A stretch of DNA of 62,028 nucleotides from Candidatus Gottesmanbacteria bacterium (GTDB lineage: Bacteria; Patescibacteriota; Microgenomatia; JAMCYU01). The stretch covers positions 1 through 62,028 of the forward strand of contig JAZDMI010000020.1 in NCBI GenBank assembly GCA_043801155.1, written 5' to 3'. Below the pieces are notes generated by a model that made no database searches, was not told where the DNA came from, and worked only from the letters and a program-made list of their open reading frames with translations. This document shows, in pieces, positions 19,435 to 54,359 of this stretch (positions within the stretch are counted from its first letter, which is position 1; each line of letters starts with the position of its first letter). Both the position numbers and the translations under genes were made by a program.

Positions 19435-22005
19435 ATGGATATCGGTAAAATACAACCAACGGAAATAACCACTGAGATGCAGTCGTCATACCTTGACTAT
19501 GCCATGTCGGTTATTGTGTCACGGGCTTTACCTGACGTTAAAGACGGTCTAAAACCAGTCCACCGCCGAATTCTTTATGCCATGCATCAACTGGGTTTAA
19601 CCCATCAAGCTCATTTTTCTAAATCAGCCAAAGTGGTTGGTGAGGTCTTAGGAAAATATCATCCTCATGGAGATATGTCTGTTTATGATGCCTTGGTCAG
19701 ATTAGCCCAAGATTTTAGTATGCGTTATCCCTTAGTTGAAGGCCAAGGTAATTTTGGTTCAGTTGATGGTGATCCACCGGCGGCGATGAGGTATACCGAG
19801 GTTAGATTGGCAAAAATCAGCCAGGAGATGCTGATTGATATTGATAAAAAAACTGTTGATTTTATCCCAAATTTTGACGCGACATTAGATGAACCGGTCT
19901 TTTTACCGGCTAAATTGCCCAATTTACTGCTGATGGGTTGTGAGGGCATTGCGGTTGGTATGGCGACCAAGATTCCAACTCACAATTTAGGCGAAGTTAT
20001 TGATGCTTTAGTTTTCATGATCGATAAAGCCAAGATAGACAGTGGTACACAGATAGCTGAAAGCCAAAATAAAAACAGAACAAAAGATAACCCTGTCACC
20101 GCTAACAGCTCACTACCGACAGCTGTCTCATTTGATATTACCATCGAAGATTTAGTGGAGTTTATTAAGGGTCCAGATTTCCCAACCGCCGGTACTATTT
20201 ATAATATTACGGAAATTATTGCCGCTTATGCTACTGGAAGAGGCCGAATAGTTATCCGTGGAAAAGCAGAAATTGAGGATGTCGGTCAAGGTAAATCAGC
20301 AATTATTATAAATGAATTGCCATATCAAGTTAATAAGGCATTATTAGTGGCCCATATTGCCGATTTAGTTAAAGACAAGAAACTAGAAGGAATTTCCGAC
20401 CTTCGAGATGAATCTGATCAGCGAGGTATTCGAGTTTATATCGAGCTTAAACGAGACGCCCGACCTCAATCAGTGTTAAATAACTTATATAAGCATACTG
20501 AATTGCAAACGGTTTTTCCGGTTAATATGGTAGCTCTGGTTGATGGAACGCCGCAAACATTGACTTTAAAGATGATCCTCGAAGAATATTTAAAACATCG
20601 CCAGAATGTGGTCAGAAAAAGATCAGAGTTTGAGTTAGCCCAAGCCAAAGCCCGCGCCCATATTCTTGAAGGTTTAAAAATCGCTGTCGACCATATTGAT
20701 GAAGTTATCCAAACGATTAAAAGAGCCAAAGATGCGGATGAGGCTAAGATTAATTTGATGACAAAGTTTAAATTGACTGAAATTCAGGCAACAGCAATTT
20801 TAGATATGCAGCTTCGCCGTCTGGCAGCCCTTGAACGACAAAAGATTGAAGATGAATATCAAATGGTCAAAGAAACAATTATCTATCTTGAGGATTTGCT
20901 AGCTCATCCGGAAAAAATTCTCAAAGTTATCAAAGATGAGTTGAATTATATTAAAGAAAAATATGCTGATCCAAGAAAAACTCGCGTGGTTAAAAGCAAG
21001 GTCGGCGAATTTAGTGACGAACAGTTAATCCAAAAAGAGACAACTATTATTACGATTACGACCAGTGGCTATATTAAGAGACTCTCACCTCTCTCATTTA
21101 AAACACAAGGCAGGGGTGGTAAGGGTGTTATAGGCATGACAACAAAAGAAGAAGATAATATTGATCACTTTTTGTTTACAAATACTCATGAAAATATCCT
21201 ATTTTTCACCAATAAAGGTAAAGTTTATCAGTTAAAGGTGTGGGATATCCCTGAAGGAACAAGAATCAGTAAAGGTCAGGCAATTGTGAATTTAATCAAT
21301 GTCGAACAAGGAGAAAAAGTTTCCTCTGTTTTAACTTACAACGAAAAATCTAATGTAAATAAATTTATCTTCTTAACCACAAAAGGCGGAACCGTCAAAA
21401 AGACAGATATTAATGACTTCACTAATATCAGACGTAATGGACTCACGGCCATTAAATTAATTTCCGGCGATGAACTCTGTTGGGCTAAATTAACTGATGG
21501 TAACTCCGACGTTATTTTAATTACCAATGACGGAAAAGGCATCAAGTTTAATGAAAAGCAAGTCCGACCAATGGGCCGGGACACCATGGGAGTGAGAGGA
21601 ATCCTGATTAAGAAACCTGCCCGCCAGCCTAGTGCAGGCTTGGCAGGCGGGAATGATCGAGTTATTGGTATGGATGTTATAGGTGATCCAAAGGCAAATC
21701 TTTTAGTAATTATGGATAAAGGAATTGGGAAACGAAGTCCTTTATCTGATTTCCCTAAACAGGGCAGGGGAGGAATGGGAGTAAAAGCATGTGAGGTAAC
21801 TGCGCGTACCGGAAAGGTTGTCTCGGCACAAATTATTCCAGAAGAAACAGATACCTGTATTTTGACTTCGTGTAAAGGTCAAGTAGTCAAGGTGAATATT
21901 AATCAAATTCCCAAACTATCGCGAGCAACACAAGGGGTTATTCTGATGAGATTTGCCGACCCCAAAGACTCATTAGCGGCGGCTACTTGCATGACAAAAG
22001 AATAA
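19435..22005 (+). CDS. gyrA: DNA gyrase subunit A
   Basis: [12 protein letters not shown], a QRDR-like HPHGD, the active-site region AAMRYTE, and C-terminal beta-pinwheel repeats. Confidence 0.97.
21616..21651 (+). repeat. GC-rich palindromic element inserted in frame in gyrA
   Basis: CCTGCCCGCCAGCCTAGTGCAGGCTTGGCAGGCGGG pairs CCCGCC/GGCGGG and AGCCT/AGGCT. It encodes [12 protein letters not shown]. The same termini occur at 49254-49294 and 53612-53653. Confidence 0.8.
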
Positions 22006-42794: not shown

Positions 42795-43916
42795 ATGAGT
42801 ATTAACGTAGAACAACGTTATGAAACAGCAAGAGACGTAAGTCGAAATAATAAGGTTCCAGCAATAATTCTGGAAACTAGCGGTGAATGCCCGCTGGCTT
42901 GTAAAAGATGTTACATGATAACTGGAGATCGCACAGCTTCCTTATCTGGCAAACCCCAAATGATTGACAGTCGAAAAGCCGTAGAAATTTTTGACCTGAT
43001 AAAGGCACAGAATAGCGGCCAGGAAGCGCAATCAGTTGATTTGGTTGGCGGTGAACCGATGTTACCAAGAGTTTGGCAGGAAGTTAAAAAGACTATTGAA
43101 ATAGCATCTGATCGCGGAATTGTACCATGGCTTTTTACTAACGGAATGTTTATGACGCCGGAAGATGCCAAATGGCTTCTAGATAAAAAAACATTTATTA
43201 CTATGAAGCTTAATATCGGTAACCCTAATGATCCCAAACAAATGGAATTACAGGCCAAAATGGTCGGCAGAAATATTAACGCAGCTAAACAGTTGGCGCG
43301 CGGATTATATATTGCTCTTGACGCCGGATTAAAGAATCCACAACTTAGCGTTGAGAACTTAATTCGGGCTGAAAATGCCCCCTTGGTTGGTGAATTCTAC
43401 GAGCTGGGGTTGAAATTAGGATTTAAACCGGATGTTGAAATTACGGGCAACGGACAAAAAGATAATTGGGGATTCTTTGCTGAAGCTCCAAGTATTGAAC
43501 AAATCCGCTCGATAATGGGACAAATAAAAAGTGTAAGAGAAAAACAAGGACTAGAACCAATCACTTTTTTAATGCCTCACATTACCGGCAGTTGTTCATT
43601 CTTTGATACGGCTTTATATTTCCGGCCGAACGGAGATATCCAACCGTGTAGTGGCAACCCAACGGTTCTGGCCAATGTTAATCAAGAAAATGCCATTGGG
43701 AATGCAATAGAAAGCCCAGTTATCCAAGTACGAAGGAATTTGACTCAAAGTCAACTTTCCGGACCATGTGGTAATTGTGGAACCTGGAGTCTGTGTCGAG
43801 GCGGATGCCGGGCAACTGTTGAATCATTTGGTAATCCTTATGGTTCTTATCCTTTATGCGGAATTCAGAAAGAATTCAATAACGCTAAAGATATAGCTTT
43901 GTCTAATAAGAAATAA
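42795..43916 (+). CDS. radical SAM enzyme with a C-terminal SPASM-like Cys cluster
   Basis: CPLACKRCY (CX3CX2C), and a C-terminal CGNCGTWSLCRGGCRA. The SD AGGAGG lies 8 nt before the ATG at 42795. Confidence 0.8.
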   Translation: MSINVEQRYETARDVSRNNKVPAIILETSGECPLACKRCYMITGDRTASLSGKPQMIDSRKAVEIFDLIKAQNSGQEAQSVDLVGGEPMLPRVWQEVKKTIEIASDRGIVPWLFTNGMFMTPEDAKWLLDKKTFITMKLNIGNPNDPKQMELQAKMVGRNINAAKQLARGLYIALDAGLKNPQLSVENLIRAENAPLVGEFYELGLKLGFKPDVEITGNGQKDNWGFFAEAPSIEQIRSIMGQIKSVREKQGLEPITFLMPHITGSCSFFDTALYFRPNGDIQPCSGNPTVLANVNQENAIGNAIESPVIQVRRNLTQSQLSGPCGNCGTWSLCRGGCRATVESFGNPYGSYPLCGIQKEFNNAKDIALSNKK

Positions 43917-43922
43917 GTTAGA

Positions 43923-43949
43923 GCTCCGGGGAAAGTACACCCCCGGGGC
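43923..43949 (+). terminator. GC-rich hairpin after the radical SAM gene
   Basis: GCTCCGGGG-AAAGTACAC-CCCCGGGGC is a 9-bp stem with one G-T pair. Only a weak T tract follows. Confidence 0.4.
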
Positions 43950-43963
43950 TTAACTTTAAAAAT

Positions 43964-48013: not shown

Positions 48014-49168
48014 TTAACTGCTTGATTCGCCTAACGTTACATTAATCTTTAATTCCTTACCGTTTCTCCAGACAGTTAATTCGAGTGTGTCCCCTACTTT
48101 TTTGCTACTGATAATTTTTGAGACGGCATTATCATCGTCACCAGAAAGTTTTTGATTATTAATTTTAGTCACGATATCTTCTACCTGTATACCTGCTTTT
48201 TCTGCCGGAGAGCCGGTAATTATTTGTACGATATATGCTCCTTCAGGTAAATCGTTCATTAAAGCTAAATCGCGACTAATCATTTTGTAACGTATTCCCA
48301 AATATGGACGACTGAATTGGCCGGTTTTATTAAAATTGCTTAATGAATCCTTGATAACATTAATTGGTAAGGCAAAACCGATATTTTGGCTTCCCTGGGC
48401 CACCGCGACATTTATACCAATTGCCTGCCCCGCGGAATTAAGAAGCGGTCCCCCGGAGTTACCCGGATTAATAGCTGCATCCGTTTGAATCACATTATCC
48501 AACTGTTCGGCGTAGCCTTCAACAGGCGAACCGGCGGTTATTCCTCTGCCTAATCCAGAAACAACTCCGGTCGTAACCGTATTTCTAAATTCTCCCAAAG
48601 CTGTACCAATAGCAATAACAAACTGACCAACTTTTAGATTTGACGAGTCTCCCATTTCAATTGGTTTTAATCCCGAAGCGCTTATTTTAATTATAGCTAC
48701 ATCATTAGCTGGATCACGATAAATTTTTTCGACATCATATTTTTTATTATCTTTAGTAATAACACGATATTTTACCTCTGTTTCAGAAACAACATGTTTA
48801 TTCGTAACGATCAAACCGTCAGCGGTAACAATAAATCCAGTCCCGATATCTTGTTCAATTTTCTGTGGCTGTTGTTCTTGTGGTTGTCCAAATATTGAAT
48901 AGGGGTCGTATGGATCTATCTGGAAAATTTTGCCAACACTTCTTGTCTGGCTAATACCAACAGTCACTACTGACGGCGATACTTTGTCAACAACGTCAAT
49001 CACCATTGATTCTTCATTAACTATCTTTACGGTCTGCCTTTCAAGCCCGGTAGTAGGAGTAGAAAATTTTAGTTTCGACCAGTTCAGGCCTAAAAGACCG
49101 GAAGAAATACCAATACCTATAAGAACTATTAAAACCGATAGTAAAATGGGAGCTTTTTTAAACGTCAT
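48014..49168 (-). CDS. htrA: HtrA/DegP-family serine protease with a PDZ domain
   Basis: TNKHV, DVAIIKI and GNSGGPLLN catalytic triad contexts, plus a C-terminal PDZ. Confidence 0.9.
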   Translation of the reverse strand: MTFKKAPILLSVLIVLIGIGISSGLLGLNWSKLKFSTPTTGLERQTVKIVNEESMVIDVVDKVSPSVVTVGISQTRSVGKIFQIDPYDPYSIFGQPQEQQPQKIEQDIGTGFIVTADGLIVTNKHVVSETEVKYRVITKDNKKYDVEKIYRDPANDVAIIKISASGLKPIEMGDSSNLKVGQFVIAIGTALGEFRNTVTTGVVSGLGRGITAGSPVEGYAEQLDNVIQTDAAINPGNSGGPLLNSAGQAIGINVAVAQGSQNIGFALPINVIKDSLSNFNKTGQFSRPYLGIRYKMISRDLALMNDLPEGAYIVQIITGSPAEKAGIQVEDIVTKINNQKLSGDDDNAVSKIISSKKVGDTLELTVWRNGKELKINVTLGESSS

Positions 49169-49218: not shown

Positions 49219-49328
49219 CGCGCCTCAGAACGTCAATTTCACAAATTGACCTGCCTGCCCGCCGGCGGCATTGCCGCAGGCAAATGCAGGCGGGAATGAG
49301 GCAAGGAAAAAGGAAAACTTGGACTTAT
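49219..49328 (+). repeat. structured intergenic element, copy C, carrying a nested GC-rich palindrome
   Basis: CCTCA-GAAC-GTCAATTT-CAC-AAATTGAC-CTG, then a 41-nt insert at 49254-49294, then AATGAGG and a tail ending GGACTTAT. The end overlaps the ctpA stop codon. Confidence 0.8.
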
Positions 49329-50539
49329 TTTAATAATTCTATGGCTTTCTCAAGTTGAGTGTCTTTTGTCAAATCTTTTTCATCCATAGCTACCTCATAA
49401 TCAGGTTTAATTCCGGTCCCATTAATCCATAATCCTTTTGGTAAAATCCATTTAGCCGTGGTTACGTGTAAACCTGCACCTCCGGGTAAATCTTGGGCTT
49501 CTTGGATTGTACCTTTACCAAATGATGTTTCCCCGACTAATTTTGCCCGATTATGATCTTTAAGTGCTCCGGCGACAATTTCTGATGCCGAGGCTGAACC
49601 TTTATTAATAATGATTATCATGGGAATTGTTAATTGTTTTCCTTGACGATCTACGTTATAGGGTGTTTGTGTACCGCCTGTCTGTTCCTGAAGTACGACT
49701 AATGTCCCTGGTGGTAAAAATTCTCCAGCAATAAAAACTGCTCCGGAAAGATAACCCCCGGGATTATTTCGTAAATCTAGAACTAATCCCTTAATTTTCC
49801 CGGACTTATATTCTAGATCGATTTCATTAATGGCATTTTCCCATTCGGTATTAGTTTGGTCACCAAATTGAGACAATTTAAGGTAAGCGGTATTGTCTTT
49901 TTTTTGCCATTCTACTGATTTGACTGATATTGTATCCCGAGTAACCGAGATATCGATTGCCTTATCTTGACCTTGATGGACAATCGATAAGGTAACTTTT
50001 GAATTACGAGGTCCGCGAATCTTATTAACGGCTTCCGGTAATGTCCAGTTACTAGTTTCTTGACCGTCAACTTTAGCAATCCAATCACCGTTTTTAATTC
50101 CGGCTTTTTCAGCCGGAGAATTTTTTAAAGGAGCGATAACAACAATTTTATTATTTTTAATGCCAAGCTGGGCTCCGACACCGTCAAATTGCCCTCCCAA
50201 ATCTTCTTTTGTTTGCTTTTGTTGTTCCGGGGTTAAAAATACCGTATAGGGATCGTTAAGCGATTGCACCATGCCTGATATGGCACCCCAAACCATTTTC
50301 TGTGGATCTAATGCTTTCTTATCAATATAACTTTTCTCTAATCTTGTCCAAACGTCCCAGAATAAAGAGAAATCAATCTGTCGATTAAGTGGGGCGGTGA
50401 CATTGGTAACCGACATTTTCGGTTTAAAGTTTTGCCAAGATAAAGTAACATCGTTTTTCCCTAAATTGTAACCAATACCACCGATTAAAATTGTAAAAGC
50501 GATTAGAAGAATAATATTTCTAACAAGTCTTAAGGGCAT
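49325..50539 (-). CDS. ctpA: carboxy-terminal processing protease (S41)
   Basis: PDZ region, then GSASASEIVAGALKD. Confidence 0.88.
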   Translation of the reverse strand: MPLRLVRNIILLIAFTILIGGIGYNLGKNDVTLSWQNFKPKMSVTNVTAPLNRQIDFSLFWDVWTRLEKSYIDKKALDPQKMVWGAISGMVQSLNDPYTVFLTPEQQKQTKEDLGGQFDGVGAQLGIKNNKIVVIAPLKNSPAEKAGIKNGDWIAKVDGQETSNWTLPEAVNKIRGPRNSKVTLSIVHQGQDKAIDISVTRDTISVKSVEWQKKDNTAYLKLSQFGDQTNTEWENAINEIDLEYKSGKIKGLVLDLRNNPGGYLSGAVFIAGEFLPPGTLVVLQEQTGGTQTPYNVDRQGKQLTIPMIIIINKGSASASEIVAGALKDHNRAKLVGETSFGKGTIQEAQDLPGGAGLHVTTAKWILPKGLWINGTGIKPDYEVAMDEKDLTKDTQLEKAIELLK

Positions 50540-53216: not shown

Positions 53217-54359
53217 TTAAACATTAAACTTAAATTCCACTACATCCCCATCTTGCATTATATAATCTCTACCCTCTTGCCTAACTTTGCCGGCCTCGGT
53301 ACACTTCTTTTCTCCGCCAAAATTTATATAGTCATCGTAGGAAATTACATCCGCCATGATAAATCCTTTGGTAAAATCGGTATGAATAACTCCAGCAGCC
53401 TGGGGAGCTGACATTCCTTTTTTAATCGTCCAAGCCCTAACTTCCTTTTCGCCGGCAGTTAAAAAAGTCATTAAACCTAGTGTCGAAAATGCTTTTTGAA
53501 TTAGTCTTTCCAGGCCGCTTTTTTCAACTCCCAATTCTTTAAGATAGGATTTCTGTTCCTCCAAAGATAACTCGGCTAATTCAGCTTCTGTCTTGGCCGA
53601 AATCGTAACCACCTGCCCGCCAGTCGCTTGCGCTCTGGGCGCATGCAGGCGGGTCTGATTCTCTAATCCTAATTCTATTGAATACTTTTTTTCAATTTCT
53701 TCGCCTTTTTTTAAATCATTTTCATCTACATTTAAAACGACCAAAATAGCTTTATCTGTTAATAGGCTTAATTGTTTACTGGCTGTTTTTTCTTCATCAG
53801 ACAGGGTAATATCTCTAGCCGTTATCCCTTTGGCTAAACCCTCTCTTAACTTAATTACCGCTTGCCAACGAAATTGATCACTCTTAGTGATAGTTCCCCG
53901 TGGTTCACTTTGTTTTTCCAGAGTTTGTAAATCCGCTAACATAAGTTCAGTTTCCACTGTTTTGAAATCACTTTTCGGCTCAACACTTCCATGTCTGACT
54001 ATGTTGGAGTCAGTAAAGTCGCGGACAACATGAGCAATGGCGTCAGTTTCTCTTATATGTGATAAAAATTTGTTGCCTAAACCCTCGCCTTTTGATGCAC
54101 CGGCAATCAGCCCAGCAATATCCAGAAATTGAACCGTGGCCGGAACCTCGGGAGGAAGATGATCCAATCCTTCGGCCTTCTTTATTACTTCTGCTAACTT
54201 TGCCAGTCGTTCATCAGGAACTGGCACGATACCAATATTGGGTTCTATCGTGGCAAAGGGAAAATTAGCCACATACGCCTGCTGTTTTTTAAGAAGAGCG
54301 TTAAATAATGTAGACTTACCTACGTTTGGAAGACCAACAATTCCTACAGACAAAGACAT
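53217..54359 (-). CDS. ychF: ribosome-binding ATPase YchF
   Basis: GIVGLPNVGKSTLFNAL, and a TGS-like C-terminus. Confidence 0.93.
   Translation of the reverse strand: MSLSVGIVGLPNVGKSTLFNALLKKQQAYVANFPFATIEPNIGIVPVPDERLAKLAEVIKKAEGLDHLPPEVPATVQFLDIAGLIAGASKGEGLGNKFLSHIRETDAIAHVVRDFTDSNIVRHGSVEPKSDFKTVETELMLADLQTLEKQSEPRGTITKSDQFRWQAVIKLREGLAKGITARDITLSDEEKTASKQLSLLTDKAILVVLNVDENDLKKGEEIEKKYSIELGLENQTRLHAPRAQATGGQVVTISAKTEAELAELSLEEQKSYLKELGVEKSGLERLIQKAFSTLGLMTFLTAGEKEVRAWTIKKGMSAPQAAGVIHTDFTKGFIMADVISYDDYINFGGEKKCTEAGKVRQEGRDYIMQDGDVVEFKFNV
53612..53653 (+). repeat. GC-rich palindromic element inserted in frame in ychF
   Basis: CCTGCCCGCCAG...ATGCAGGCGGG is 42 nt. Read on the minus strand it encodes TRLHAPRAQATGGQ. 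Confidence 0.8.

Follow-up and report, generated by a model that had tools for sequence, protein, structure and literature searches.

A GC-rich palindrome inserted in frame in gyrA of a Candidatus Gottesmanbacteria bacterium as a probable member of a dispersed family of REP-like elements

The gyrA gene of a Candidatus Gottesmanbacteria bacterium (GenBank assembly GCA_043801155.1, contig JAZDMI010000020.1, forward strand) contains a GC-rich palindromic block of 36 nt. The whole 62,028-nt stretch analyzed, referred to here as the window, possesses two more copies of the same palindrome, one in ychF and one between two protease genes (Table 1). The gyrA block is probably a copy of a small, non-autonomous mobile palindrome that resembles the repetitive extragenic palindromes (REPs) and is translated through. 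The 36- and 42-nt insertions into gyrA and ychF are precise and without target-site duplication, keep the frame and introduce no stop codon. Thus, the block would most simply be transcribed and translated with its host gene.

The initial annotation, made from the window sequence alone, had described the block as adding 12 residues between VRGILIKK and NDRVIGMD of GyrA. The open reading frame (ORF) confirmed this position, and the copy is exactly 12 extra codons long. The nearest proteins to GyrA of the window were 83% identical and came from metagenome-assembled genomes (MAGs) named Candidatus Gottesmanbacteria or Microgenomates. In an alignment with the 119 closest homologs (at most 83–85% identity), the 12 insert columns were empty in all homologs. 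Similarly, alignment with GyrA of Escherichia coli left a 12-residue gap at the insert, between L726 and G727 (counted by hand), and solved structures likewise have no such residues. The lineage-specific insertion proposed in the initial annotation was therefore recovered in the ortholog alignment. At the DNA level, the relatives read GTTAAAAAG/GAAGAC (the slash marks the junction), whereas the window reads ATTAAGAAA(36 nt)AATGAT, which gives a clean empty site. Without the element, the junction in the window would read ATTAAGAAA/AATGATCG. No target-site duplication was found in this comparison with relatives, and no element copies were found in the 20-kb gyrA neighborhoods of relatives (L215–L217).

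An AlphaFold2 model of GyrA was built from 44 input sequences and had a mean predicted local distance difference test (pLDDT) score of 70. Most 10-residue blocks of its C-terminal domain averaged ~75–90, and residues 728–739 were modeled as coil with pLDDT <50, flanked by beta strands of a single pinwheel blade. The lineage-specific insert is thus predicted to be a surface loop of the C-terminal beta-pinwheel. Elsewhere in GyrA, a variable segment of the N-terminal domain at about residues 200–235 (window 20035–20140) also had pLDDT <50, and its length differs among the closest homologs.

Table 1. Copies of the element in the window, their host or flanking genes and the motifs that follow them.
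Feature	Position	Strand	Description
Element copy 1	21616..21651	+	36 nt CCTGCCCGCCAGCCTAGTGCAGGCTTGGCAGGCGGG, in frame in gyrA, GyrA residues 728–739
Host gene gyrA	19435..22005	+	ORF of 856 aa
AATGA directly 3' of copy 1	21652..21656	+	Host sequence, codons N-D
Element copy 2	49250..49294	+	Intergenic, 41 nt (49254–49294) plus an extra CCTG unit (49250–49253)
S41 peptidase gene	49325–50539	-	Flanks copy 2 at its stop
HtrA-like protease gene	48014–49168	-	Flanks copy 2 at its start
AATGA after copy 2	49295–49299	+	NNTGA motif
Element copy 3	53612..53653	+	42 nt, in frame in ychF, antisense to the gene
Host gene ychF	53217..54359	-	380 aa
TCTGA after copy 3	53654–53658	+	NNTGA motif

The gyrA block had been noted to share its termini with ychF and an intergenic repeat. 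The pattern CCTGCCCGCC-N(10–30)-GCAGGCGGG matched the window exactly three times, all on the + strand and with spacers of 17–23 nt, and the matches were the gyrA, intergenic and ychF copies. No match occurred in any of 100 dinucleotide-preserving shuffles. Scanning the window with up to 2 mismatches per arm yielded no further convincing copies. The GC content of the contig is ~36% and that of the element blocks is at least 70%; 14 stretches of the contig, including the three element blocks, reach 70% GC over 30 nt.

All three copies fold as nested hairpins. Their DNA minimum free energies are -12 to -18 kcal/mol, and their z-scores relative to shuffled sequences lie between -2.4 and -2.9. The hairpin predicted in the initial annotation therefore stands, but not its pairing as CCCGCC/GGCGGG only, because the 10-nt arms CCTGCCCGCC and GGCAGGCGGG pair over 10 positions, with a T.G mismatch at position 3 and a C.A mismatch at position 7. 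Both arms can be read as phase-shifted windows of a (CCTGCCCG)n periodicity, and neither has a stop codon in any of its frames. The cores of the three copies are 16–23 nt long, wholly different in sequence and each self-complementary. Family-wide, the core between the arms is variable, ranges from 7 to 30 nt and is often itself a hairpin. RNAalifold analysis of 22 copies of the 42-nt subfamily supported only the outer stem and one extra A-T pair, and a conserved inner structure was rejected.

An NNTGA motif follows all three copies of the window (AATGA, AATGA and TCTGA), within the outer flanks AAGAAA/.../AATGAT (gyrA), AATTGA/.../AATGAG (intergenic) and TAACCA/.../TCTGAT (ychF). The AATGA previously reported after the gyrA and intergenic copies is thus present. 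Nevertheless, in a sample of metagenome copies that was not chosen for the motif, NNTGA followed just 6 of the 109 copies. The family as a whole does not share the trailing AATGA, and NNTGA/AATGA may reflect a local target preference at copy 1.

The ychF copy is 14 extra codons long and encodes (T)RLHAPRAQATGGQ. The YchF insert had no counterpart in the 119 closest homologs (at most 78% identity), and solved YchF structures have gaps opposite it. Other Microgenomates YchF proteins (P0247 and P0251) have different insertions a few residues upstream of this point, such as GLEDQARLAEDGESR, and the YchF loop is therefore an indel hot spot. The intergenic copy lies 31 nt downstream of the S41 peptidase stop and ~80 nt upstream of the HtrA-like gene, two genes on the same strand. 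Its hairpin folds with -18.3 kcal/mol, and no T-run terminator signature was found at this copy. At 43920–43950, directly after an ORF ending at 43916, the window also contains a perfect GC-rich hairpin, GCTCCGGGG...CCCCGGGGC, which looks like a terminator unrelated to the element family.

Further copies were found, not only the three in the window but many well beyond the contig. A scan of one genome per species, which required both arms plus NNTGA, identified at least 119 loci. At least 89 of these copies were in loci with <56% GC, where a hand composition estimate of the chance expectation for low-GC DNA was ~1 or fewer. Within the Patescibacteria, the MAGs with copies were labeled Saccharibacteria, Gottesmanbacteria, Taylorbacteria, Komeilibacteria, Magasanikbacteria, Liptonbacteria, Peribacteria and SR1. 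Additional MAGs were labeled Bacteroidota, Ignavibacteria, Dehalococcoidia and Desulfobacterota. A copy was also found in the genome of an isolate, Zunongwangia mangrovi DSM 24499 (L097). A metagenome scan, of which the sole condition was an A/T run 9–15 nt downstream of the element, identified at least 109 distinct copies on metagenome contigs. The dominant subfamilies are 27, 30, 33, 36 and 42 nt long, and the family ranges from 27 to 51 nt. The gyrA copy resembles the metagenome copy L406, and the ychF copy falls into the 42-nt subfamily, as do L397 and L421 among the metagenome copies. Larger conserved multi-hairpin modules enclose the hairpin in mid-GC genomes.

Viral contigs also carry the element arms. 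Overall, the mismatched arms were found in 95 viral stretches, compared with 94 and 76 for two perfectly complementary arm variants. In low-GC viral context, the corresponding numbers were 24 vs. 13 and 8, and lengths were multiples of 3 in 22 of 24 stretches with mismatched arms vs. 6 of 13 and 1 of 8 with the perfect variants. A generic GC hairpin was therefore rejected, as the mismatched type was commoner in low-GC context and was the only one with multiple-of-3 lengths. BLAST searches of annotated phages and plasmids with the common 33-nt variant returned only partial chance matches in GC-rich replicons. A claim of archaeal hosts is not warranted either. The 'Pacearchaeota' contig with a copy (L103, JBAZOZ010000028.1) encodes a bacterial-type PheS alpha, which among solved structures is matched best by bacterial PheS; the contig has been mis-binned or its PheS gene came from bacteria. 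Thus, spread across domains is not established.

Between the copy of Z. mangrovi and a Zunongwangia-like copy (L201), the flanks are ~95% identical, and an indel in the core (42 vs. 45 nt) makes a perfect complement of the left arm, a difference that looks like template-switch remodeling of a quasi-palindrome. Intergenic copies are often inside tandem arrays of 6–8-nt units on both sides, such as (GAAAATT)n, (GATAACC)n and GAGTGCG; examples in the set L383–L502 are L426, L449, L463, L488 and L412. Direct repeats in the flanks with at least 6 of 7 positions matching were seen 22 times, compared with 4.9 expected from shuffles. These repeats could result from target duplication, from repeated insertion and excision or from insertion into microsatellites.

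The coding status of copies was assigned with a conservative ORF criterion. Among the copies listed, ~15–18% were coding and ~82–85% non-coding, and in the window two of three are coding. Lengths were multiples of 3 for 27 of the 31 coding copies listed and for 66–70% of the non-coding ones; the latter largely reflect the dominant subfamilies and hence were not over-interpreted. Copies spanned by long ORFs contained no stop codon. Elsewhere, the host genes of coding copies included uvrB, dnaG, pheS, polA and dus (tRNA-dihydrouridine synthase), and solved UvrB and PheS structures have gaps exactly opposite the element. The coding copies use five of the six reading frames and both orientations, giving typical peptides such as PAR..AGG, xLPA..QAG, xRLP..GGQ and PPA..RAG. 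Thus, conservation is at the level of nucleic acid and not of protein.

Presence and absence of the element were most evident in polA of Dehalococcoidia. In the PolA linker, 19 of 119 homologs (87–100% identity) carry LPAVQLWQAG, which corresponds to a 30-nt element located ~870–900 nt into the gene and present or absent among strains that are 88–94% identical. The sequence is CTGCCCCA/AATGAAGG in the empty allele and CTGCCCCA(30 nt)AATGAAAG in the filled one. The junction is precise and without duplication, and the AATGA that follows the copy is also present in the empty allele. One empty allele (L382) is the closest relative, at 91.7% nucleotide identity, of one filled allele, and the filled alleles span ~85% nucleotide identity. 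On a neighbor-joining tree built without the linker, at least 11 gains or losses of the 30-nt element at one nucleotide position are required, although allelic recombination is also possible. In addition, the same site is filled in different species from independent studies (L161, L102 and L379–L381). Six codons downstream, a second insert of 10 amino acid residues, PSVGAGLVPA, is encoded by a GC hairpin of another family. Its distribution is even patchier than that of LPAVQLWQAG: 24 homologs have it, and the tree requires at least 21 changes. A few PolA proteins (P0136, P0175 and P0196) have both inserts or extra copies. Finally, recent copying is suggested by identical copies that lie apart from each other on one contig stretch (L168 and L193).

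The element shares most with REPs. REPs of 20–40 bp inside ORFs, many of them in replication and repair genes, have already been described (Di Nocera et al., 2013, PMC3733652). Similar to REPs, which are imperfect GC-rich hairpins of 20–45 nt whose stem is conserved and whose loop varies, the element is a short imperfect GC-rich palindrome with dispersed copies, of 36, 41 (+4) and 42 nt in the window and hundreds elsewhere. Both are scattered, sometimes form clusters and lie mostly between genes, downstream of ORFs. Family-wide, the element is mainly extragenic with a minority of copies in frame in replication and repair genes (gyrA, uvrB, dnaG and polA; for REPs, uvrB, polA and dnaE). Different from REPs, the element is conserved in a 10-bp stem whose T.G and C.A mismatches are fixed, and no linked REP-associated tyrosine transposase (RAYT) was found near its copies.

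The initial annotation had likened the element to the Rickettsia palindromic elements (RPEs), reportedly described by Ogata and colleagues in 2000. As selfish palindromic DNA of a reduced, AT-rich genome that lies in frame in functional genes and adds surface segments to their products, the element is indeed RPE-like. Its size and architecture are not: RPE-1 is ~100–150 bp long and restricted to Rickettsia, whereas the element is 27–51 nt long, has no sequence similarity to RPE-1 and is hosted by a Microgenomates/Gottesmanbacteria-like member of the candidate phyla radiation (CPR). It is nearer to RPE-4 and RPE-6, short types that have been classed as CGTC REPs (Di Nocera et al., 2013, PMC3733652). 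Given that in-frame intragenic REPs and RPEs are already described, the family is new but its kind is known. No literature describing the element, or linking REP/RAYT systems to CPR bacteria, was found, in agreement with the initial remark that no characterization was known for this kind of genome, and full-text searches with the arm sequences yielded nothing but eukaryotic primers without relation to the element.

IS200/IS605 and REP/RAYT systems have imperfect hairpins, lack target duplication and excise precisely, and IS200/IS605 elements and their miniature derivatives, the palindrome-associated transposable elements (PATEs), move by single-stranded 'peel and paste' transposition catalyzed by HUH Y1 enzymes. 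The element resembles them in its imperfect hairpin, in the lack of target-site duplication and the precise empty alleles, which occur both in polA and among the gyrA relatives, and in a short motif on one side of the window copies (TCANN/ on the complementary strand). However, it has a single hairpin instead of two different subterminal hairpins, its flanking motif is not family-wide and no TnpA was found with it. Moreover, many intergenic copies lie between short direct or tandem repeats, which is atypical of IS200/IS605. A miniature inverted-repeat transposable element, with terminal inverted repeats, target duplication and usually 70–300 bp, was rejected because no duplication was found in gyrA or polA and the size is far below that range; the arms nonetheless act as 10-nt imperfect inverted repeats, and some intergenic copies lie between 6–8-nt repeats.

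In the proposed mechanism, the element would move as a single-stranded DNA hairpin that is cut and rejoined in trans by an HUH/Y1-type enzyme (RAYT or IS200/IS605-like) or another enzyme encoded elsewhere. Movement as single-stranded DNA would explain why the hairpin is imperfect, why target duplications are lacking and why the empty alleles are clean. Copies that break a reading frame would be removed by selection, and translated copies would form flexible surface loops rich in Pro, Ala, Gly and Arg. Hosts probably carry the copies as neutral or slightly costly passengers.

The one weak RAYT/IS200-like ORF found, in a Patescibacteria MAG (L165:61–804, - strand; Pfam Y1_Tnp E = 0.005, below the curated cut-off), is bracketed by a hairpin unlike the element, CTCCTCGACCTGCCAGGTCGAGGAG, which suggests that REP/RAYT-type systems exist in CPR bacteria. 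Rfam searches of the whole window at the gathering threshold, and permissive searches around two copies, returned only an unrelated tRNA and noise. A K-turn or box C/D-like RNA, considered because of the GA...NNUGA flanks, was rejected as NNTGA was rare in the unselected sample and both gene orientations were used. Similarly, an integron attC site was rejected for lack of R-box (GTTRRRY) motifs, and a self-splicing intron or intein because no Rfam match was found and a 12-residue insert is far too short for an intein. A link to diversity-generating retroelements, considered because a fragment of an Avd-like gene ends at a hairpin in L118 and L122, was rejected too, as nothing comparable was found in the window and only 2 of 144 neighboring ORFs matched 23S_rRNA_IVP. 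In L118 (445–640) and L122 (reverse strand), from a Deltaproteobacteria MAG and an 'archaeon' MAG, ~190 nt are shared, starting exactly at the hairpin. The shared stretch contains the first ~30 codons of an Avd-like gene (23S rRNA intervening-sequence, four-helix-bundle) that is cut short at the element, and (GGAAATT)n repeats flank it.

Several results weigh against a REP-like mobile palindrome that moves as single-stranded DNA and is translated. No Y1/HUH-like ORF was found in the window by phmmer with IS608 TnpA and E. coli YafM as queries (approximate sequences), and no protein family was enriched among 144 ORFs adjoining copies. The orientations relative to the host gene, 21 same and 17 opposite among the copies listed, were nearly even and therefore lend no support to a strand-specific single-stranded DNA mechanism. 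Flank composition tables revealed neither the GTAG nor the CGTC tag of REPs. Moreover, REPs are usually specific to a species or genus, and the occurrence of the exact 10-nt arms of the element in many phyla is unusual. The source genome contributed a sample of only three copies, and we infer the translation of the insert from its intact frame. Finally, only 3 of 30 sites in the polA element vary among five filled alleles, compared with 27% for polA as a whole and 32% for the flanks of the element (P about 0.02), and one of these three changes, a T-to-C in the arm, repairs the T.G mismatch. Slow change in polA and exact arms across phyla leave room for a host-level function or gene conversion.

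Part of this evidence would fit a functional motif, such as a binding site in DNA or RNA, an mRNA-stabilizing or pausing hairpin or a recombination site, that is maintained by the host or a widespread protein and spread by selection for its function rather than by selfish copying. Arms that are identical across phyla down to the same two mismatches, a polA copy that changes more slowly than its gene, copies that are mostly intergenic and often downstream of ORFs like REPs, and the larger multi-hairpin modules of mid-GC genomes are all consistent with such a motif. We nevertheless regard it as unlikely. The element is about equally frequent in both orientations to transcription within genes, the essential genes of the closest relatives work without the insert, and its presence at a single site changes frequently. 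Moreover, no Rfam match and no terminator signature at the intergenic copy were found, and the genes next to copies are unrelated to one another.

It is very improbable that the block is an intervening sequence absent from the protein, either a mini-intron or a segment skipped by the ribosome. A parallel is offered by the mobile GC clusters and 'byp' elements of yeast mitochondria, the latter reportedly described by Lang and colleagues in 2014: GC-rich palindromes of 30–50 nt that invade the protein genes of a very AT-rich genome, much as a compact GC hairpin lies in an AT-rich gene here. Both, however, are organellar, and byps are skipped by ribosomes and do not need to keep the frame, whereas the element keeps it, which implies translation through the element. 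Neither the lengths in multiples of 3 of 27 of 31 coding copies nor the absence of stops in long ORFs would be needed if the block were removed. In addition, no known self-splicing RNA is as short as 36–42 nt, the Rfam searches gave no matching family, and there are no matching take-off and landing codons, with AAA before the gyrA copy and AAT after it. Although metagenome assemblies make up the source and almost all of the other hosts, an assembly or library artifact, or three unrelated GC hairpins arising from local slippage, has next to no likelihood given that the same polA site is filled in different species from independent studies, the isolate Z. mangrovi DSM 24499 has a copy, intragenic copies preserve the reading frame and the three copies of the window share identical 10-nt and 9-nt termini never reproduced by shuffles.

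A REP-like mobile palindrome that is translated with its host gene therefore remains our preferred explanation of the gyrA block. More tentatively, and with considerable doubt, the mismatched CCTGCCCGCC/GGCAGGCGGG stem might define a superfamily of micro-transposons found in many phyla and some viral contigs and adapted to gene-dense genomes by its subfamily lengths of 27, 30, 33, 36 and 42 nt and its stop-free arms. Such an element would insert and excise precisely at single nucleotide positions, driven by an enzyme, and its arms would be maintained by repeated turnover or selection.

Selfish palindromes of the REP/RPE type would thus also colonize the tiny, gene-dense genomes of CPR bacteria, with essential genes (gyrA and ychF, for example) among their sites, and one hairpin design recurs in many uncultivated lineages. 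Such inserts make lineage-specific insertions in CPR proteins seem more numerous than they are and can mislead alignments and phylogenies, and they can serve as strain-level presence/absence markers. The polA site of Dehalococcoidia, where two hairpin inserts come and go, is a natural system for studying how short palindromes move. If the superfamily exists, it would be smaller and more widely distributed than any other coding-tolerant mobile element known in prokaryotes.

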